From Candidatus Nanohaloarchaea archaeon (GTDB lineage: Archaea > Nanohalarchaeota > Nanosalinia > Nanosalinales > Nanosalinaceae), in the NCBI GenBank assembly GCA_042217585.1, contig JBDGSJ010000026.1:5428-46755 (forward strand): a stretch of 41,328 nucleotides of DNA, given 5' to 3'. Shown here one piece after another: positions 32,053 to 41,328 of the stretch. The notes under the pieces were generated by a model that did no database searches, was not told the origin of the DNA, and saw only the letters and a program-made list of their open reading frames with translations. The position numbers and the translations under genes are program-made. How positions within the stretch are numbered: the first letter of the stretch is position 1; each line of letters opens with the position of its first letter.

Positions 32053-32412
32053 ATGGCGGCTGAATACGGCGATCCCGTGGAGAAGTTCGGTTCACTTGTC
32101 GCGCGTTACAGGACCGCGGTGGACGCGGACTTCCCCGAGGAGGACCTGAGAGAGGTGCGCAGAGAGGCGATGGCGTACGCCGATGCGCTCCGGGAGAACG
32201 AGGAGTTCTGGGGCGAAGACAGGCCGGCCTACGCGGAGTTCCACGACCGCGTCAGCGAACACTCGTTCGAAGAGGAGGCGCTGAAGGACCTGCTGGAGGA
32301 GGTCGAGGAGATCGACCGGAAGGCAAGAGACCACTACGATCTGGAAAACGAGCTGGAGATGGGAGGCCCTGACATGGATCCCGGCGGCGGAGGTCCTCGC
32401 CCGGCGCTGTGA
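32053..32412 (+). CDS. Hypothetical acidic protein
   Basis: TTTTAAG 22 nt before the ATG; host-like codon usage. Confidence 0.7.
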   Translation: MAAEYGDPVEKFGSLVARYRTAVDADFPEEDLREVRREAMAYADALRENEEFWGEDRPAYAEFHDRVSEHSFEEEALKDLLEEVEEIDRKARDHYDLENELEMGGPDMDPGGGGPRPAL

Positions 32413-32452
32413 GGCCTGAAACGTTTTAACTCTTCACCGGGAATTCTTCTGC

Positions 32453-33472
32453 ATGGAAAAGGAGAAGCGCAAAGAACTGGTCCTCCGTAACACCGAGGAG
32501 GTCGTCACCGAGGAAGAACTCGAAGAAGTACTTGAGAAAGACGAGCCGAGGTGCTACGTGGGCTATGAGACTTCAGGACCGGTTCACCTGGGACACTGGA
32601 TCTCCGTGCGGAAGATGCTGGACCTGCAGAAGGCCGGATTCCAGCCGGTAATCCTGTGGGCGGACCTCCACACCTACCTGAACAAGAAGGGAGAGGAGGA
32701 CTGGATACAGGACATGATGGACTACTGGCAGGCGACGTTCGACGCGCTGGGCCTTGACGCCGAGTACGTCCGCGGCCGGTCCTTCCAGGAGGACACCGAG
32801 TACTTCCACGACATACTTGAGATGTCCCAGGAGACTACCCTGAACAGGGGGAAGAGGGCGATGGCCGAGATCGCCTCCGGAGAGGACACCTACACCTCTC
32901 ACGTCATCTACCCGCTGATGCAGGCGCTCGACATAGTGCACCTGGACCTTGATCTCGCGGTCGCAGGGATCGACCAGCGAAAGGTCCACATGCTTGCCCG
33001 TGAAAAGCTGCCGAAGCTGGGATACGACAAGCCGACCTGCCTCCACTGGCCGATCCTCGAATCCCTGGCCGGAGAGGGCGACAAGATGAGCTCATCGAAG
33101 AAAGAGACGATGTTCCCTCTCCACGCCGACGAGGAAAGAATCCGGGAGACCATCGAGGACGGCTACTGCCCGCAGGGAGAGGTCGAGGGCAACCCTATAA
33201 TCCAGATCGCGGAGTTCTTCATCTTCGGCGCGGACCGGGAACTGGATATAGAGCGGCCGGAGAAGTACGGCGGCGACGTCCACTACTCGGAGATAGGACC
33301 GCTGAAGGAGGACTTCGAATCGGGAGACCTCCACCCGCAGGACCTGAAGGAAGCCGTGGCGGAAGAGGTCGTGGAACGGTTCGAGCCGGTCCGTGAGAAG
33401 TTCCGGGAGGAACCGGAGCTGCTGGACCCTCTCGAGGAGATCGGCCACGAGAAGCCTTCGTATATAGAATAG
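32453..33472 (+). CDS. tyrS: Tyrosine-tRNA ligase (archaeal type)
   Basis: YVGYETSGPVHLGH, YPLMQALD, GIDQRKVH, KMSSS, LHPQDLK. Confidence 0.97.
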   Translation: MEKEKRKELVLRNTEEVVTEEELEEVLEKDEPRCYVGYETSGPVHLGHWISVRKMLDLQKAGFQPVILWADLHTYLNKKGEEDWIQDMMDYWQATFDALGLDAEYVRGRSFQEDTEYFHDILEMSQETTLNRGKRAMAEIASGEDTYTSHVIYPLMQALDIVHLDLDLAVAGIDQRKVHMLAREKLPKLGYDKPTCLHWPILESLAGEGDKMSSSKKETMFPLHADEERIRETIEDGYCPQGEVEGNPIIQIAEFFIFGADRELDIERPEKYGGDVHYSEIGPLKEDFESGDLHPQDLKEAVAEEVVERFEPVREKFREEPELLDPLEEIGHEKPSYIE

Positions 33473-33744: not shown

Positions 33745-34395
33745 CTACCAGTTGACTCCCTTCACCTCTCCCCAGAACACGGAGAGAACGAACAGCAGTC
33801 CGAAGAGAAGGTTGTTCACGATGGCGGGGAGAGGTCCTATGGCTCCGGCCTGGTAGGCATTGTTGAGAATCGCCGAGATCAGCAGGGCGTCGAGGCCTGC
33901 GAGAGTGAATATCGCCATCTTCTGGCCGTCAGCACCTCCAAGCTCCCTCGCGGTCTTTAAACCTATCACCCCTATGGCGATTCCGGCCGGTACAAGCGTC
34001 AGAGGCCAGATCTTGCCGGCGAGAGGCGGCAAAAGCCGGGAGAATATACCTGCGCCGATCGCTATCGAGGCCGCTCCCATCCCCCAGAAAACCCGGTCAT
34101 ATCTCTCATAGGAGGAGTAGATGAAGGCCGTGACGAACTTCCACATCACGGCGGTGGCACCGAAGATGAAAACGTGTCCCATCATGATCACTGCGGGATT
34201 CGCAGGACCTGTGAAGTGGGCCATGCCGGAGTACACCAAGAGCATGAACAGTCCGAGAAGCCCCATGACGTAGGAGGTGAGCTTCGTTATCCTTCTGAGA
34301 CCTCTGCCCTGCCTGAAACGCCAGTAGAGGAACACCGAAGTGGCCAGGAACATCACACCCTCGAAGAGATTTGAGGTCGCGTACAGGTCCGCCAT
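33745..34395 (-). CDS. 7-TM membrane protein, paralog A
   Basis: 216 aa, seven hydrophobic segments, no soluble output domain. Confidence 0.8.
   Translation of the reverse strand: MADLYATSNLFEGVMFLATSVFLYWRFRQGRGLRRITKLTSYVMGLLGLFMLLVYSGMAHFTGPANPAVIMMGHVFIFGATAVMWKFVTAFIYSSYERYDRVFWGMGAASIAIGAGIFSRLLPPLAGKIWPLTLVPAGIAIGVIGLKTARELGGADGQKMAIFTLAGLDALLISAILNNAYQAGAIGPLPAIVNNLLFGLLFVLSVFWGEVKGVNW
33809..34047. repeat. 239-bp exact direct repeat, copy 1
   Basis: Identical by eye to 34516-34754 (offset 707). Confidence 0.92.
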
Positions 34396-34451
34396 ACATC
34401 AATTCTGGAGAACTCTGAATAAAAAAGGACAGGGTGGGTTCAGGGGAGCCT

Positions 34452-35102
34452 TCACCAGTTGACGTCTTTGATCTCTCCCCAATAGACGGCGAGGACGAAC
34501 AGACTGCCGAAGACCAGGTTGTTCACGATGGCGGGGAGAGGTCCTATGGCTCCGGCCTGGTAGGCATTGTTGAGAATCGCCGAGATCAGCAGGGCGTCGA
34601 GGCCTGCGAGAGTGAATATCGCCATCTTCTGGCCGTCAGCACCTCCAAGCTCCCTCGCGGTCTTTAAACCTATCACCCCTATGGCGATTCCGGCCGGTAC
34701 AAGCGTCAGAGGCCAGATCTTGCCGGCGAGAGGCGGCAAAAGCCGGGAGAATATCCCCACTCCTATCAGGATCGATACCCCGCCCAGGGCCCAGAACACC
34801 CTGTGATACTTCTCGTAGGAGGAGTAGAGGAACACGGTTATGAATTTCCACATGTAGGCGGTAGCCCCGAAGACGAAGATATGGATTACGGACACACCGC
34901 CAAGTATATCGGGAGGAGTGAAAAGCACGTACGAGGCGTAGATCCCTGACATGAACATCCCCAGGAGCGCCATCACGTAAGTCGTTAGTTTTGTAACTCT
35001 CTGAAGACCTGTACCGCTTCTCATCCTCCAGTAAAGAAAGACAGATGTAAGGAGGAAAGCCAGGCCCTCGATACCGTGCGAGGCAACGTATAGGCTTGTC
35101 AT
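34452..35102 (-). CDS. 7-TM membrane protein, paralog B
   Basis: 216 aa, colinear with paralog A. Confidence 0.8.
   Translation of the reverse strand: MTSLYVASHGIEGLAFLLTSVFLYWRMRSGTGLQRVTKLTTYVMALLGMFMSGIYASYVLFTPPDILGGVSVIHIFVFGATAYMWKFITVFLYSSYEKYHRVFWALGGVSILIGVGIFSRLLPPLAGKIWPLTLVPAGIAIGVIGLKTARELGGADGQKMAIFTLAGLDALLISAILNNAYQAGAIGPLPAIVNNLVFGSLFVLAVYWGEIKDVNW
34516..34754. repeat. 239-bp exact direct repeat, copy 2
   Basis: Identical by eye to 33809-34047. Confidence 0.92.
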
Positions 35103-35188: not shown

Positions 35189-35256
35189 GTGTGGTCACCA
35201 ATGAAGGGTGGACGCTTTTCTCACGACCCCGCACCTGGCCTTTGACCTAGGTGCAA
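35189..35256 (+). ncRNA. Candidate small structured RNA upstream of serS
   Basis: Own TATA (TATTTAAG 35161-35168), hairpins GTCACC/GGTGGAC and GCACCTGG/CTAGGTGC; serS has a separate TATA at 35261-35268. Confidence 0.35.
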
Positions 35257-35298
35257 CGCTCTTTAAAACCCGTGATAAACTGTTTCTTGGTGAGCTGA

Positions 35299-36573
35299 AT
35301 GCTTGACATCGAACTTTTCAGGGAGGACCCGGAGACTATCAAACAGAGCGAGGAACGCCGCGAGAAGGACCCGGAACGCGTCGACGAAGTGGTCGAACTG
35401 GACCGTAAGTGGCGCGACACGCTCCAGGAACTCCAGGAACTCCGGCAGGAAAGGAACGAGGTAGGAGACGAGATAGCCGAGGCCAAGAAGAACGGCGAAG
35501 ACGCCGGAGAGAAGATAGAGAGGATGCAGGAGGTCAAGGAACGCATCGAAGAGCTAGAGGAAAGAGAGGAAGAGCTGAAAGAGGAGAGAGACGACCTCCG
35601 GTACCAGATCGGGAACATCCTCCACGAGACGGTCCCTCAGGGCGAAGACGAGGACGACAACGAGGAGATAAAGAACTGGGAGCCCGAAGAGGGACGTGAC
35701 GAGGACGCAGAGCTCGCGGCAGACGTGATCGAGAGGAACGACCTCGCCGACACGGAGAAAGCCGTTCAGCTCGCCGGCGAAAGGGCCTATTACCTGAAAG
35801 AGGACCTCTTCCGGCTGAACCAGGCGCTGATAAACTTCTCGATGGACCTCCTGAGGGAGAAGGGATTCACCCCGATGCAGACTCCCTACATGCTGAACAG
35901 GGAACCTATGGAGGCAGCCGCAGAACTGGAGGACTTCCACGAACAGCTCTACAAGATGGACCGGGAGGACAAGTACCTGATCGCGACCTCGGAGCAGACC
36001 CTGGCGACCTACCACTTCGACGAGATCCTCCAGCCGGATGAACTCCCGAAGAAGTACGCAGGTTTCTCGACCAACTTCCGGCGTGAGGCCGGGAAGCACG
36101 GCGAGGAGACCCGCGGGATCTGGAGGATCCACCAGTTCGAGAAGGTGGAGCAGTACATATTCTGCGAGCCGGACGAGTCGTGGGACCGGCACGAGGACCT
36201 TCTCCAGAACGCGGAGGAGGTCATGCAGGAGCTCGGCCTTCCCTACCGGGTCGTAAACGTCTGCACCGGGGACATGAACGATAACGCCGCCAAGAAGTAC
36301 GACATCGAGGTCTGGAGACCGCCGCTCGGAGAGTACGGAGAAGTTGTCTCGTGCTCGAACTGCACGGATTACCAGGCCCGGAAGGTCGGAGTCAGGATAA
36401 GGCGGCCGGAGGACAACGAGACCGCCCACACGCTGAACGCGACCGCCTGCGCCACCCAGAGGGTCATGACGGCGATCATAGAGAACAACCAGGCCGATCA
36501 GGGGATCAGGATACCGGAGCCTCTCCAGGACTACATGGGCGGACAGGAGTACATAGAGCTCCAGGAGGGATAG
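35299..36573 (+). CDS. serS: Serine-tRNA ligase (bacterial type)
   Basis: N-terminal coiled coil, LIATSEQ, FRREAG, HQFEKVEQ, VSCSNCTDYQAR, HTLNAT. Confidence 0.97.
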   Translation: MLDIELFREDPETIKQSEERREKDPERVDEVVELDRKWRDTLQELQELRQERNEVGDEIAEAKKNGEDAGEKIERMQEVKERIEELEEREEELKEERDDLRYQIGNILHETVPQGEDEDDNEEIKNWEPEEGRDEDAELAADVIERNDLADTEKAVQLAGERAYYLKEDLFRLNQALINFSMDLLREKGFTPMQTPYMLNREPMEAAAELEDFHEQLYKMDREDKYLIATSEQTLATYHFDEILQPDELPKKYAGFSTNFRREAGKHGEETRGIWRIHQFEKVEQYIFCEPDESWDRHEDLLQNAEEVMQELGLPYRVVNVCTGDMNDNAAKKYDIEVWRPPLGEYGEVVSCSNCTDYQARKVGVRIRRPEDNETAHTLNATACATQRVMTAIIENNQADQGIRIPEPLQDYMGGQEYIELQEG

Positions 36574-36654
36574 AGCCCCCTCCCTTTTTTCTCTTCGAGT
36601 GGTGTACCGGGTAGTACAGACCCGTCCATATACCTCGACCCACATTTCTTTACC

Positions 36655-37083
36655 ATGCGGGACCGCAGTTTCGACAGAAGCGGCAGTTACAGAGAGTTCA
36701 CGGAAAACCCGGAGAAAGGCAGCGAACTCGTGGACTCCGGATGGGGCTACGATGAGGTTAGAGCGGCCGAGGAAGAGATCGAGAGGTTCGGAGAGGTGAG
36801 GGAAGACGAGAGCCATTTCTTCCAGGACCTCGGGCAGGATGAACTCGCCTTTGTGATAGAGGAGCTGAGCTCGGGCCCCAAAACCGTTGGAGAGATAGCG
36901 GAGAGGCTTTACGACGACAGGTACGGGGACGAGGACCCTGGCTGGAAAGAGAGCCGCAGGAGGAAAAGAGAGCTGGAGGACAGAGTGGGACAGGCGTTCA
37001 GGTATCTACGGATGAGAGGTCTGAACTTCGATACCGACCTGACGGTGGACTGGGGCCTGAGGATCGAGCCGAGGACGGACTGA
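36655..37083 (+). CDS. Hypothetical protein, possible winged-HTH C-terminal domain
   Basis: LSSGPKTVGEIAERLY...VGQAFRYLRMRGL pattern. Confidence 0.6.
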   Translation: MRDRSFDRSGSYREFTENPEKGSELVDSGWGYDEVRAAEEEIERFGEVREDESHFFQDLGQDELAFVIEELSSGPKTVGEIAERLYDDRYGDEDPGWKESRRRKRELEDRVGQAFRYLRMRGLNFDTDLTVDWGLRIEPRTD

Positions 37084-37124
37084 AAACGGGAAAAAGGAAG
37101 AGGTAAAGAGAACTTTTGAGAGGA

Positions 37125-37325
37125 CTATAGCCGGTCCAGAGGATCTTCCTCGAGTAGGTCCTCGACACCGGTGGGCTCTTCGCCGTATGCCTCCTGGGTG
37201 TAGCCCGTAGTATCGTTCACCAGGTCCACGGCGTCGAGCTCTTCCGGCTCTTCTCCTCTCGCAAGGTACTCGTCCTCAAGCAGGTTGCCGTACTCCTCGT
37301 GTGCGGAGAGTTCGTCTTCAGCGAT
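37125..37325 (-). CDS. 66-aa acidic protein with ATC start (absent from the ORF track)
   Basis: GAGGTGA + 6 nt + ATC; (M)AEDELSAHEEYGNLLEDEYLARGEEPEELDAVDLVNDTTGYTQEAYGEEPTGVEDLLEEDPLDRL*; GAG/GAC-rich host-like codons. Confidence 0.72.
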   Translation of the reverse strand: MAEDELSAHEEYGNLLEDEYLARGEEPEELDAVDLVNDTTGYTQEAYGEEPTGVEDLLEEDPLDRL

Positions 37326-37361
37326 CCTGAATCACCTCGTGTTATATTTCGGGTTTTTGAA

Positions 37362-37398
37362 GGTTTTTCATCGGAACGGTATGGTATAGCGGTGTTGT
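37362..37398 (-). promoter_or_regulatory. Shared leader motif, copy 1
   Basis: Sense: ACAACAC-cgctat-ACCATACCG-tt-CCGATGAAAAACC. Confidence 0.6.
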
Positions 37399-37681
37399 GT
37401 GTTGTTTGACAGCAGTTCTGGAGTGGTTTTCTAGAAGCGCGGCATGAACGCCGCGATGAATACGTGCTTCTTCCAGAAGCCGGTGTTGATGGAGGTGTGG
37501 GATACTGCTGAACCTGTCCGGAGTCGTGAGAAATTTTCTCGGATAGCTTTCAGACCTTCAGCGTCCACTTTACCGGCCTCTACCTCTCTAAATTGTGCTG
37601 CGAGCTTTAAAACCGTTTGGTATTGTCGGAGGGGAGGTACACCTATTTTTTCAAGTTAACCGGCGCACCTGTTCTGTAGTC

Positions 37682-39721
37682 ATGGAGACCACGGTGATGA
37701 TAGGTGAGAAGCCGAAGGTGGCGAGCAGGCTGGCGAACGCCCTCGGCGATTACTCGATAAAGGAGAACAGGGGAGTCAAGAACTACGTGCTGGAGACCGG
37801 CGACAGGCGCGTGATAATCTCGCCGGCAGTAGGACACATCTTCAACCTGGAGGAGCAGGAGGACGGCTGGGACTATCCCGTGTTCGACGTGGAGTGGGAG
37901 CCGATATTCGAGAACGACGATGACGCGGGCTACGTGAAGAAATACTACAACAACCTCCGGGACCAGCTGGAGAAGGCAGATAACTATATTAACGCCTGCG
38001 ACTACGACGTGGAGGGGTCCACGATCGGCGGCGTCATACTGAAGGAGATGATCGACGCGCCGGACGAGCGGATACAGAGGATGAAGTTCTCCACCCTCAC
38101 CGCCTCGGACCTCAGGGACGCGTTCGACGACCTCGAGGGCTTCGACAGTGGGATGACCGAGGCAGGGATCACCCGGCACATACTGGATTTCTACTACGGT
38201 GTGAACGTCTCCCGGGCGCTGATGCAGGCGGTCCGGGAGAACGACCGGTACAAGACACTGAGCACGGGCCGGGTCCAGGGACCGGCGCTGAAGATACTGG
38301 CGGACCGGGAGCGTGAGCGCCGCGCCTTCGAGCCCGAGGACTACTGGGAGTTCTTCCTCCACAACCCCGAGTTCAGGGCGAAATGGCAGGGAGAGGACGA
38401 GGACCGGGTCTGGGACGAGGAGGTCGCCCGGCAAATGTTCGAGGACATGCAGACGGAGGACCAGGCGGTCGTGGACAACATCAAGGTCAACAACTACAAG
38501 CACAACCCTCCGACGCCCTTCAACCTGACGGACCTCCAGCAGTCCGCCTCCCGCCAGTTCAACATCAACCCGAAGAGGACCCAGTCCATCGCCCAGGACC
38601 TGTACGAGGACGGCCTGATCTCCTATCCCCGTACAGAGTCGCAGAAACTTCCCGCGAAGATAGGGTACAAGAACCTTCTCGGGAAGCTGAAGAAGAACGA
38701 CAAGTACGAGGACCTGGCCCAGAAGGTGCTGGACAAGGAAGAGATCTACCCGAGGCAGGGCAAGAAGACCGATGACGCACACCCGGCGATTTACCCGACG
38801 GGAGAGCATCCCTCCGGGCTTTCAAAACAGGAGAGACAGGTGTACGACCTGATAGTGAAGCGTTTCCTCGCGGTCTTCGGGGACGCCGCGAAGCGTCAGT
38901 CACTCACCATGACGCTGGAGGTGAAGGGCTACGAGTTCCAGGCCAAGTCCAAGGTCACCAAGGAGAGGAACTGGTTCAACCTGTACGACCCGTACGTGAA
39001 CGTGGAGGAGGCAGAACTTCCGGAACTGGAGGAGGGCGAGGTCCTCGACATCGAGGAGTTCGAGCTGGCGGAGAAGGAGACCAAGCCGCCCCGCCGCTAC
39101 TCCCAGTCAGGGATCGTCTCGGAGCTGGAAGACCGGGAACTGGGCACAAAGGCGACCAGAGCCGACATAATCGACAGGCTCTACTCCCGGAACTACATCG
39201 AGGGCGATCCCATCGAGGTCACGGACCTCGGGCTGGCGATCGTCTCCGCGCTTGAGGACCACTGCGAGGACGTCCTCAGCGAGAAACTGACCCGGGAGTT
39301 CGAGGAGAAGATGGAGGCGATCCGCGACGGCCAGGAGACCCGGCAGGAGGTCATCGACGAGGCCCGTGAAGAGCTTGAGGAGATACTTCAGAAGTTCAAA
39401 CAGGAGGAGAAGGAAATCGGCGCCGAACTCGTTGAGACCATCGACGCGGAGAGGGACCGCAGGCGCCAGCTCGGTCCCTGCGACCGCGAGGGATGTGACG
39501 GAACGCTGAGGATCGTGAAGACCGGCGGAAGCCGTTTCGTCGGCTGCTCCAACTATCCGGACTGCGAGAACACGTACCCGCTCCCGAACAACGGGGACAT
39601 CGAATCGATGGAGAAGGAGTGCGAGGAGTGCGGGAAGCCGATGATAAGCGTGACCCGGAAGAGCTCCAGCAACTACTCGATGTGCGTGGACCCAGACTGC
39701 CCGTCGAAGGACGACTGGTAG
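37682..39721 (+). CDS. topA: DNA topoisomerase IA with C-terminal zinc ribbons
   Basis: GEKPKVA, ACDYDVEG (TOPRIM), STGRVQGP, ISYPRT catalytic Tyr, LGTKATRA, Cys clusters; start ATG 37682. Confidence 0.96.
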   Translation: METTVMIGEKPKVASRLANALGDYSIKENRGVKNYVLETGDRRVIISPAVGHIFNLEEQEDGWDYPVFDVEWEPIFENDDDAGYVKKYYNNLRDQLEKADNYINACDYDVEGSTIGGVILKEMIDAPDERIQRMKFSTLTASDLRDAFDDLEGFDSGMTEAGITRHILDFYYGVNVSRALMQAVRENDRYKTLSTGRVQGPALKILADRERERRAFEPEDYWEFFLHNPEFRAKWQGEDEDRVWDEEVARQMFEDMQTEDQAVVDNIKVNNYKHNPPTPFNLTDLQQSASRQFNINPKRTQSIAQDLYEDGLISYPRTESQKLPAKIGYKNLLGKLKKNDKYEDLAQKVLDKEEIYPRQGKKTDDAHPAIYPTGEHPSGLSKQERQVYDLIVKRFLAVFGDAAKRQSLTMTLEVKGYEFQAKSKVTKERNWFNLYDPYVNVEEAELPELEEGEVLDIEEFELAEKETKPPRRYSQSGIVSELEDRELGTKATRADIIDRLYSRNYIEGDPIEVTDLGLAIVSALEDHCEDVLSEKLTREFEEKMEAIRDGQETRQEVIDEAREELEEILQKFKQEEKEIGAELVETIDAERDRRRQLGPCDREGCDGTLRIVKTGGSRFVGCSNYPDCENTYPLPNNGDIESMEKECEECGKPMISVTRKSSSNYSMCVDPDCPSKDDW

Positions 39722-39752
39722 ACATTTATTCGTTACCTTCTAATAACAATCC

Positions 39753-40496
39753 ATGAATGAGGAGTACTCCGGAGTCTCCACCAGGGATTTCCTGAAGCTC
39801 GTGGGCGGCTTCGGAGCCGGAACCATAGGCCTCAGAGACCTTGCGATACTCGGCGCGGACCTTTCAAGAGGGAAGTACCTTAACGGGAAGCCAAGCTCCG
39901 CGCAGGACCCGGAGGCGTTCGAGAACGCTGTCGAGGGGGAGCTACCGGTCCGTTACTTCCAGCTCTACCGCGGTGAGAAGGAGCACGAGTACGACGAGGA
40001 AGCGGTATTCGACGAGATGGACTCGGCGCTTGACGAACTGGAAGAGATCAGGACCGACCAGGAATGGTACGAGTTCGACCTGGACGAGTACAAGAACTTT
40101 GACGGCGTGGAGACGCCCGCCCTCTCGATGCACGACAGCGAGAACCTCCACGAGTTCATGGAGGAGTTCCACGAAGCTTTCAGCGAGGAACAGGCAGAGG
40201 AAGGAGTAAACCTTCTCATCTCAGACTACCCGACCGGGAACGCAGCCGGTCTGGCGCTTCCGGAGGACCGGGGTTTCGAGACAGGTTACGCCCTGCTGAA
40301 GAACCACGAGGAGATAGATTACGCGGCGGTCCACGAGACAGCACACGTCCTCGGACTCACCCACACCGCGATGGGAGGGATGACGAACACGTTCATCGGA
40401 AGGATCGCGGGCGCGCTCGAGCCAGGGTACTTCGGACCTGAAAGCAAAGAAAAATGGGAGAAGATGAAGGAAGAGAGGTTTCAGGAGGGTCCGTAG
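39753..40496 (+). CDS. Exported or membrane-anchored metzincin-type zinc metalloprotease
   Basis: HETAHVLGLTH (HExxHxxGxxH) followed by GGM Met-turn; N-terminal STRDFLK plus hydrophobic stretch. Confidence 0.78.
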   Translation: MNEEYSGVSTRDFLKLVGGFGAGTIGLRDLAILGADLSRGKYLNGKPSSAQDPEAFENAVEGELPVRYFQLYRGEKEHEYDEEAVFDEMDSALDELEEIRTDQEWYEFDLDEYKNFDGVETPALSMHDSENLHEFMEEFHEAFSEEQAEEGVNLLISDYPTGNAAGLALPEDRGFETGYALLKNHEEIDYAAVHETAHVLGLTHTAMGGMTNTFIGRIAGALEPGYFGPESKEKWEKMKEERFQEGP

Positions 40497-40930
40497 CCCG
40501 CCGGGTCCTCGCCGTCGAAGTGCTCGTTCCCGAGCTGGGCGTACTCCTCCTGGTCGTACTCCGGGATCCAGCCGCCGTCCGCGGCGATCCTCGGCTTCTC
40601 CGTCTGAGGGATCTCGACGCCGAACTCCTCGAGCGCCTCGATAGCGGCGTCGCTGGCGATCTCCCGGTCCGGCTCGTACGTCTCGCTGACCCCGTTGTTC
40701 GCGCCGATGTACTCGCCGAACTCCTGCCAGTGCTCGCCCCTGGCTCCTCTGACCGCGGCGTGGTCCCCGACGATGTCGATCGCCTCCTCGTCGGAGTCGT
40801 AGATGAAGAGCGCGGACCCGCCACGGATCTCCATCTCGTAGATCTCGTCTCCTATCTCCTCGGTCCGGTCGTCCTCTGCGATCGGCTCGGGGTCGTCCAT
40901 CGCCCAGGTCTGGGAGTAGCCGTCTCTAAT
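40481..40930 (-). CDS. Acidic hypothetical protein; start ATT 40930 (alternatives GTG 40939, ATG 40900)
   Basis: GGAGGTGA + 5 nt + ATT; host-like codons; IAADGG near the C-terminus. Confidence 0.72.
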   Translation of the reverse strand: MRDGYSQTWAMDDPEPIAEDDRTEEIGDEIYEMEIRGGSALFIYDSDEEAIDIVGDHAAVRGARGEHWQEFGEYIGANNGVSETYEPDREIASDAAIEALEEFGVEIPQTEKPRIAADGGWIPEYDQEEYAQLGNEHFDGEDPAGYGPS

Positions 40931-40958
40931 AGCTATCACCTCCTTCCATCGATACAGC

Positions 40959-41003
40959 GGTTTTGCATCGGTTTACAGGTCCGGTATGGTCGTGTAGTGT
41001 TGT
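40959..41003 (-). promoter_or_regulatory. Shared leader motif, copy 2
   Basis: Sense: ACAACAC-tacacg-ACCATACCG-N10-CCGATGCAAAACC. Confidence 0.6.
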
Positions 41004-41328
41004 CATGGGAAAAACACCTGTCGAAAAACAGAGAACTCACACCAGCACGGACACCGTCACAGCCACCAGCAGCAGTACAGGTACCAGGTCAGAAAGAACG
41101 GCTGTTAAAGCGTGGTCCGTGGAGAAACCGTCCGCCTTCCCGGCGGACCTCTCTGAAGTTCGTCTACGAGAACTGCAGAACGCGTCCACCCTCTGAAGAC
41201 CCTCCGTTTTCCCGGGGCTCCGGCAGAGCGAGAGCTCCCTGTACAAAACGTCCACCCTTCCGATGGGCCGGAGAGCCGTGAAGCAGACGCATTAGGGACC
41301 TATTCCCGGCCGAGAGTTAAAAACCTTT

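Follow-up and report, generated by a model that had tools for sequence, protein, structure and literature searches.

Leaders of two small genes in a Candidatus Nanohaloarchaea archaeon carry members of a phylum-wide family of candidate +1 frameshift sensors for scarce aminoacyl-tRNA

The window analysed here, a stretch of 41,328 nucleotides (nt) from contig JBDGSJ010000026.1 of a Candidatus Nanohaloarchaea archaeon, carries on its minus strand two short genes for acidic proteins, gene 1 and gene 2, each preceded by a leader. In a previous reading made from the letters alone (the sequence-only reading), it was proposed that two motifs, a mini open reading frame (ORF), a strong Shine-Dalgarno (SD) sequence and a non-AUG start shared by these genes define a regulon controlled at translation initiation. 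Our analysis indicates that the motifs are the tail of a longer leader and that the sensor is a box lying further upstream, which that reading overlooked. The box probably belongs to a phylum-wide family of hungry-codon sensors acting by +1 frameshifting, present here in a two-stage form for valine, leucine and isoleucine (Val/Leu/Ile) that includes a relay ORF. Judged by sequence, the gene-2 cassette is intact and the gene-1 cassette is decayed or rewired. From 5' to 3', the gene-2 leader presents a TATA-like box, a mini-gene starting with ATG, two boxes (Val and Leu), a +1-frame ORF, a pyrimidine tract, the relay, the SD GGAGGTGA and the start ATT, as follows (G, L and C numbers are our handles for genomes, loci and contigs):

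41314..41323, minus strand: TATA-like box, a presumed promoter; a similar box stands 24-25 nt before the ATG in G006 and G022.
41164..41292, minus strand: leader ORF (frame 0), 42 codons, its ATG at the presumed 5' end of the transcript; matching leader ORFs in G006, G022 and L216-L218.
41242..41259, minus strand: sensor box 1, AAG GGT GGA CGT TTT plus the Val codon GTA, which is kept in 5/5 orthologues.
41176..41193, minus strand: sensor box 2, GAG GGT GGA CGC GTT plus the Leu codon CTG, also kept in 5/5 orthologues.
41122..41136, minus strand: degenerate third box with a Leu codon, after the frame-0 stop and in a stretch missing from G006 and G022; probably inactive.
41037..41243, minus strand: +1-frame ORF that counts 68 codons from box 1, the last of them (41037-41087) forming a run of Val/Leu codons.
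41007..41036, minus strand: pyrimidine tract and SD-like AGGTG ahead of the relay ATG, a candidate attenuation site.
40926..41006, minus strand: A/C-rich relay ORF, 26 codons, its stop overlapping the gene-2 start; open from the ATG in 6/6 orthologous loci.
40982..41003, minus strand: second copy of motif 1 of the sequence-only reading, equal to codons 2-9 of the relay ORF.
40959..40971, minus strand: second copy of its motif 2, containing a family element, CAAAA(C/T), about 41-44 nt after the relay ATG.
40936..40943, minus strand: SD GGAGGTGA, complementary to the 16S rRNA 3' end in 4/4 complete relatives (this end is not assembled in G000).
40481..40930, minus strand: gene 2, an acidic protein of 149 amino acids (aa) of no known family, start ATT.

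Gene 2 very probably does begin at ATT, since in that column, at GGTGA+5, the orthologues have ATC (G006, G022 and L218), TTG (L216) or ATG (L217), the last two at equal SD spacing. The more distant homologues P0008 and P0010 begin with Met in this column. The protein itself gave no Pfam match, its structure model was too poor to use (predicted local distance difference test, pLDDT, 43) and its homologue P0003 had no usable match in the Atlas. A search of 1.84 billion representatives disclosed five relatives, one of them a repeat-type match, and a close homologue bears the source label Ca. Nanohalobium sp. Homologues were detected in two of 40 relatives, and in the alignment of their leaders with that of the window the best-conserved part was the box, 190-260 nt upstream, and not the motif of the sequence-only reading.

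We scanned 70 genomes of the phylum with the pattern RRGGTGRACGYKTT and found the box in 52 of them, with 208 matches, the reversed-pattern control being near zero. Nearly all matches were retrieved, giving 205 distinct sites for analysis, and an in-frame ATG lay upstream at 182 of these. After dropping 26 sites that were without ATG or had a long frame 0, a leader-type set of 179 remained. At 149 of these an A/T-rich box preceded the leader ATG by about 25 nt in a loose, uncontrolled test. The frame of the box is GGT GRA CGY (TTT/GTT) X, with a frame-0 stop 6-30 codons further on, and X was found as sense codons for 13 amino acids. The downstream proteins were clustered, and each cluster was named from the Pfam and NCBIfam matches of one representative. 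X was cognate to the downstream synthetase at 80/80 clustered sites (Ser 20, Thr 16, Gly 15, Tyr 9 plus Trp 2, Val 8, Cys 5, Pro 3 and Phe 2; the joint TyrRS/TrpRS cluster was divided by N-termini); nine synthetase families each have their own sensor codon. Non-synthetase or single cases were Ile before ilvA (4), Leu before leuA (1), Trp before trpB and trpE, and His before hisS (one locus). One member of the simple, one-stage kind lies in the window:

35201..35306, plus strand: ATG AAG box with a Ser codon, whose +1 stop lies 5 nt into serS (ATG 35299; serS by Pfam).

Downstream of the box, a stop within -16 to +12 nt of the start of an ORF of at least 70 aa was found in the +1 frame at 104/179 sites, in frame 0 at one and in frame -1 at 12. 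The commonest offsets of the +1 stop were -1 (38 sites, a 4-nt overlap) and -5 (20 sites), and at 26/179 sites the +1 frame itself was at least 70 codons long.

As to the nature of the signal, a fully degenerate codon pattern gave 65 matches, 61 of which read GGT GRA CGY, and the Arg of the box was replaced by Cys or Tyr in three orthologues. Because GGT GRA CGY is fixed in nucleotides and its Arg is replaceable, the signal lies in the RNA and not in a peptide; the same lack of synonymous variation and the replaceable Arg ruled out a nascent-peptide (GGRF) sensor. The GGGTGG or AGGTGG of the box can pair with the 16S 3' end GATCACCTCC found in 4/4 complete relatives. Moreover, the P codon tracked the first base of X, being GTT in 31/32 sites where X begins with C and TTT in 135/147 otherwise. 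This choice avoids a perfect TTT-to-TTC slip, and would be expected if +1 re-pairing were tuned. Transcriptional slippage on a T run was discarded, as boxes with GTT-C contain no run.

Some further boxes and genes were recorded. At G000:C38:3126, C8:5887 and C8:2263 the +1 frame of the box continues into a protein without a start of its own, these being an AbrB/MazE-like protein (His codon), a glutamine amidotransferase-like protein (Leu) and a 335-aa protein (Trp). In the window, tyrS is leaderless (32390-32456, plus strand), and in relatives a Tyr box stands before tyrS. Trp loci (L022, L026, L028, L037, L062 and others) are also two-stage, with a second box following the first +1 ORF, whose end usually lies close to a Trp codon and a T-rich tract.

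We propose that translation begins at the 5' ATG and brings the ribosome to the box, at which GGGTGG would pair with 16S rRNA while TTT or GTT occupies the P site and X the A site. With charged tRNA present the ribosome would stay in frame and terminate at the frame-0 stop 6-30 codons on, and with tRNA scarce it would slip by +1; the architecture is seen, and the slip is what we infer from it. Before synthetase genes the +1 ORF is seen to end on the gene start, and in the Val/Leu/Ile class it ends in a codon run before an SD-led relay. A ribosome parked on the run would sustain transcription through the pyrimidine tract, likely by shielding the RNA from termination by aCPSF1/FttA, this being the weakest step of the scheme. 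The relay ORF, by its architecture, would then hand ribosomes to the SD+5 start of the target by termination-reinitiation, which at gene 2 is ATT, a near-cognate start of a kind used generally in the lineage. The predicted outcome is that these genes are switched on when valine or leucine runs short. More tentatively, a programmable +1 cassette may run the amino-acid regulon of nanohaloarchaea, in which a Val/Leu/Ile double-check gate, a slip followed by a stall on the codon run, controls aCPSF1 termination and would thus be an attenuator native to archaea. Through the conserved A/C-rich relay ORF it may feed a starvation programme of these host-dependent cells, made up of diverse small orphan proteins, some of them with AUU or AUC starts.

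The two-stage class was defined by X being Val, Leu or Ile with no gene directly behind (37 sites). Its +1 tails held 6.6 Val/Leu/Ile codons among the last ten (n=37) versus 2.0-2.3 in the others (n=115). Of the three amino acids, the one most frequent in the tail matched X; the Val/Leu run of the gene-2 leader is typical for its class. The +1 stop is followed by a pyrimidine tract, an SD-like GAGGT(G), an ATG, at 11-67 nt from the stop across the class, and a very A/C-rich stretch (mean A/C content after the relay ATG 0.84, versus 0.54 in directly coupled genes). In four loci the stretch encodes the N-terminus of ilvA itself, and in most of the others it forms an ORF of 23-29 codons with its stop next to the first codon of a small acidic gene that belongs to no Pfam family. 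Apart from these, G000:C37:18183-18320 (L255) contains A/C-rich, SD-led short ORFs resembling the relay, behind a TATA-led leader and with no box of the strict pattern.

How the codon run acts on the relay was addressed by folding tests on 26-28 hand-picked loci. Pairing of the GU-rich run with the A/C-rich motif was rejected, cognate pairs giving -12.0 and non-cognate pairs -13.2 kcal/mol (permutation p 0.99, n=28), and so was an opening of the relay start by the ribosome, mean accessibility being 0.50 versus 0.48-0.51 at any ribosome position (n=26). It could be argued that the frameshift sensor is real and that the ribosome on the run unmasks the relay SD by an RNA-structure switch, similar to the translational attenuation of ermC or cat. 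In agreement with this, the relay SD is largely base-paired when the RNA is free, its mean unpaired fraction of 0.20 increasing to 0.33 if a ribosome occupies the stop (n=27, a rise that counts loci whose SD lies inside the blocked window), and a strong hairpin spans the +1 stop in 7/26 loci versus 7/89 controls. We nevertheless regard such a switch as unlikely, given the flat accessibility of the whole start, the rejected pairing of run and A/C arm, and the absence of a hairpin at the window locus (z +0.5). Neither a conserved terminator/antiterminator hairpin pair nor any switch was found in the folding tests. The pyrimidine tract scored 9.9 of 12, close to the 9.4 of convergent gene 3' ends in this genome (p=0.21) and well above the 7.5 of operon-internal spacers. 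Since the tract resembles gene ends, aCPSF1 is encoded in the genome, pairing of run and arm was rejected and unmasking was not upheld, we favour attenuation for the step from run to relay, with modest confidence. A review has speculated that coupled ribosomes block aCPSF1 (PMC8116511).

A different explanation dispenses with the frameshift: the +1 ORF would start at the GTG of the box, with access to this start gated by a ribosome that has stalled at X, or with that ribosome dropping off and restarting there. GTG is present in 63/65 matches of the degenerate pattern, the long +1 ORFs (26/179) could be called from it, and GTG starts are common in this genome. Yet a stalled ribosome would be expected to hide the GTG and thus to repress under starvation, which is the wrong sign for synthetases and biosynthesis, and the dependence of the P codon on the first base of X would be left without explanation. 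We consider this account distinctly unlikely.

The motifs that drew attention to these leaders were re-examined in the light of the family. All strings, both mini-ORFs, both SDs and the starts ATC 37325 and ATT 40930 were confirmed at their places, as was the distance of 51 nt from motif 1 to the start at each of the two loci. The 14-position core ACAACAC-N6-ACCATAC has two copies in the window at no more than two mismatches versus 0.09 expected, a number reached in 0/100 shuffles. As the signature of a regulon it did not hold, as the exact core occurs only twice in the genome of 979,871 bases and only in degenerate form in relatives. The two window copies agree at 17/22 nt, and agreement at least as good was found in 84/351 pairs (24%) among 27 A/C-rich relay starts versus 7/351 (2%) after shuffling; for this reason the motif is a particularly clear instance of a family consensus that is real but degenerate. 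The family element CAAAA(C/T) lies 35-49 nt after the relay ATG in 17/27 relays, mostly at 41-44. The description of the remaining leader as dissimilar was misleading, because both leaders derive from one design whose best-conserved part lies 170-250 nt further upstream. The mini-ORFs were not conserved: where the second has its ATG, 5/5 orthologues have CTG in the alignment. They are hence incidental, and the conserved upstream ORF begins at ATG 41006 in another frame, open in 6/6 loci. Thus, of the proposed control at the level of translation, the upstream ORFs, re-initiation and the non-AUG start of gene 2 stood, and the motif as signature and the mini-ORFs did not.

It could still be proposed that the core is a specific site, for an RNA-binding factor or as an operator, that licenses AUC or AUU 51 nt downstream. 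Both strings and their equal spacing are real, the consensus exceeds what composition gives, CAAAA(C/T) keeps a near-fixed distance, and an A/C-binding factor is conceivable. Nonetheless this is very improbable: there are two exact copies only, the other relays differ from the core by 1-5 mismatches and mostly lead to ATG, motif 1 occupies different relay frames at the two loci, and near-cognate starts were found in housekeeping genes by a route that did not use the motif. Lastly, a T-box-like riboswitch, with AGGGUGG as the site for the CCA end of uncharged tRNA and X as specifier codon, is hardly credible in spite of what we take to be a resemblance of the box to the T-box sequence and of its position before synthetase genes with the cognate codon, as positions 36500-41328 gave no Rfam T-box match even at E<=5 (and one chance-level match only in the whole scan), X lies 9 nt downstream of UGG and not in an upstream stem, and strict frame relations to the upstream ATG and the downstream starts are unexpected for a riboswitch.

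Several observations weigh against the frameshift sensor that we favour. The genomes are kin, so that counts of boxes are not independent events. The spacer from the SD-like sequence to the P codon is 4 nt, re-pairing of GTT to TTC and of TTT to TTG or TTA is possible at just two of three positions, and the box always carries a +1-frame GTG, a possible start. In the window, the gap from the +1 stop to the relay ATG is 33 nt, which is too long for termination-reinitiation, a process reported to be nearly abolished at about 20 nt (PMC10666635), and the structure tests did not explain this gap. The pyrimidine tract is barely richer than the sequence after frame-0 stops (9.9 versus 9.3 of 12). An in-frame GTG within the gene-2 SD, present in all six loci, may be an alternative start, and the target proteins have no known link to amino-acid supply.

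The other leader, that of gene 1, and the topoisomerase gene between both leaders comprise the following features:

37682..39721, plus strand: DNA topoisomerase I gene (Pfam PF01131), in the same arrangement in G006, G022 and L216.
37605..37614, minus strand: TATA-like box of the gene-1 leader, lacking an ATG at the usual distance behind it.
37558..37572, minus strand: decayed sensor box, with frame-0 stops before the box and at the slip codon; an intact Val box lies here in G006, G022, L216 and L218.
37431..37557, minus strand: remnant +1-frame ORF, ending at TAG 37431-37433.
37339..37410, minus strand: remnant relay ORF with start GTC and its stop lost, holding motif 1 (37377-37398) and motif 2 (37362-37374).
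37332..37338, minus strand: SD GAGGTGA, its TGA in frame with gene 1.
37125..37325, minus strand: gene 1, an acidic ORF of 66 aa from ATC; no homologue found.

The corresponding loci of G006, G022, L216 and L218 show the complete set, namely an intact Val box, a codon run, a relay and a gene that starts with ATG. The gene-1 leader of the window lacks its ATG, has stops in the frame of its box, and has a relay that begins at GTC and has lost its stop; this relay remnant is identical at 21/22 nt to the Val-class relay of L164. Contigs from a second sample and from another study span 37145-37446 without gaps and with two or three differing letters; because these contigs carry nearly identical sequence, decay or rewiring is probably the right explanation, and not a misassembly. 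The ATC start of gene 1 is plausible. Unlike that of gene 2, its SD contains no in-frame GTG. Gene 1 had no match in 40 relatives and gave no alignment with the 91-aa protein found at the same position in G022. In G006 the reading frame of the gene at this position is interrupted at a G run (L007:5370-5440). Between topA and gene 2, a 247-aa gene (39753-40496, plus strand) with a twin-arginine-like N-terminus and an HExxH motif is not there in G006 and G022, and two tandem genes for 216-aa membrane proteins with a long, near-identical C-terminal part lie at 33748-35102 on the minus strand.

The sequence-only reading had also tied non-AUG starts to the motif. Most relays of the Val/Leu/Ile class lead to ATG, and ATC, ATA and CTG follow GGTGA in housekeeping genes of G000, all SD-led:

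C32:1643-1852 (L254): ThiS/SAMP gene, start ATC.
C23:19559-19921 (L252): Roadblock paralogue, start ATA.
C1:6076-6405 (L253): dsDNA-binding gene, start CTG.

The ThiS/SAMP gene has ATC in 7/12 loci, six of them with an in-frame stop two codons upstream, and ATG in the column in three others, the ATC start being common to several genera. The Roadblock paralogue has ATA in two of 12 loci and ATG in ten, and for the dsDNA-binding gene ATG occurs at or within three codons of the column in 15 relatives (in this comparison L299 gave no match and L300 was left out). Near-cognate starts are therefore general in the lineage, and given their presence in housekeeping genes the motif is not necessarily what licenses them. 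In Escherichia coli, infC has an SD-led start of the AUU type, a single autoregulatory case. The starts described here are like it in standing at normal SD spacing where orthologues have ATG, and unlike it in affecting several genes of an archaeal lineage. The gene for aIF1, which the sequence-only reading had suggested inspecting for altered residues, was found (L005, G000:C3:17094-17303), and its product is ordinary except in the basic loop, which reads RSYSK here versus RRFGK and ARYGK in two solved archaeal proteins. The second Arg of the loop, before the aromatic residue, is lacking in most genomes of the family (L005 and L224-L251), and a link of this loop to start fidelity is at most a lead. 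Among other observations, G013 has two tandem aIF1 genes, G000 has three close Roadblock/LC7 paralogues (C23, C22 and C37) in one small genome, two of them 98% identical, and the region at G000:C35:24950 has, beside short repeats, a sequence that we take to resemble an origin-recognition box.

In the leader-peptide attenuation of bacterial ilv, leu and thr operons, a translated leader carries a run of regulatory codons just before a U-rich tract. The present leaders share the codon run in a translated leader before such a tract, and ilvA and leuA are among their targets; they differ in that the run would be reached only after a change of frame, that no hairpin pair was found and that an extra relay ORF exists. 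With prfB, which encodes release factor 2 (RF2), they share a short frame-0 ORF, an internal SD-like sequence before a U-rich P codon, a slow A-site codon as sensor and, by the proposed shift, a +1 product (PMC5009743). An internal SD-like sequence able to pair with 16S rRNA and a +1 frame with a predicted functional product (104/179 sites coupled, 26 with long +1 ORFs) were both found. Unlike in prfB, where the A site is a UGA stop within the RF2 gene, it is here a swappable sense codon sensing charged tRNA; the spacer is 4 nt instead of 3 nt (PMC5009743), the device is used before many genes, its output is mostly re-initiation on a separate gene and the host is an archaeon. The slip caused by a missing aminoacyl-tRNA at the A site is that of hungry-codon frameshifting, considered a side effect of starvation whose natural use is unclear (PMC5009743, PMC8211752), whereas here it would apparently be built in and gene-specific. 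For archaeal recoding, a review from 2021 names a single reported -1 case besides a few candidates (PMC8211752). As in the termination-reinitiation of Haloferax, stop and start overlap or lie a few nt apart, often with an SD (PMC6728339, PMC10666635); unlike there, the upstream ORF is conditional and the relay gap of 11-67 nt exceeds the reported range in most loci. No published description of this leader system was found in a literature search that mostly did not extend to subscription papers. The system is apparently undescribed, and would join RF2-type frameshifting to leader-peptide attenuation in its operation while being a member of neither family.

To our knowledge, how archaea, and especially reduced, host-dependent ones, match synthetase and biosynthetic genes to amino-acid supply is poorly known. 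The findings flag many small orphan genes as candidates for induction by starvation, and show that gene callers misplace starts (ATC, ATA, CTG) in this lineage. If the proposed mechanism is true, a modular sense-codon frameshift sensor would represent hungry-codon slippage used on purpose, a matter left open by a 2016 review (PMC5009743). A further gain would be a compact cassette that can be tested in Haloferax and, possibly, an archaeal example in which translation natively controls termination.

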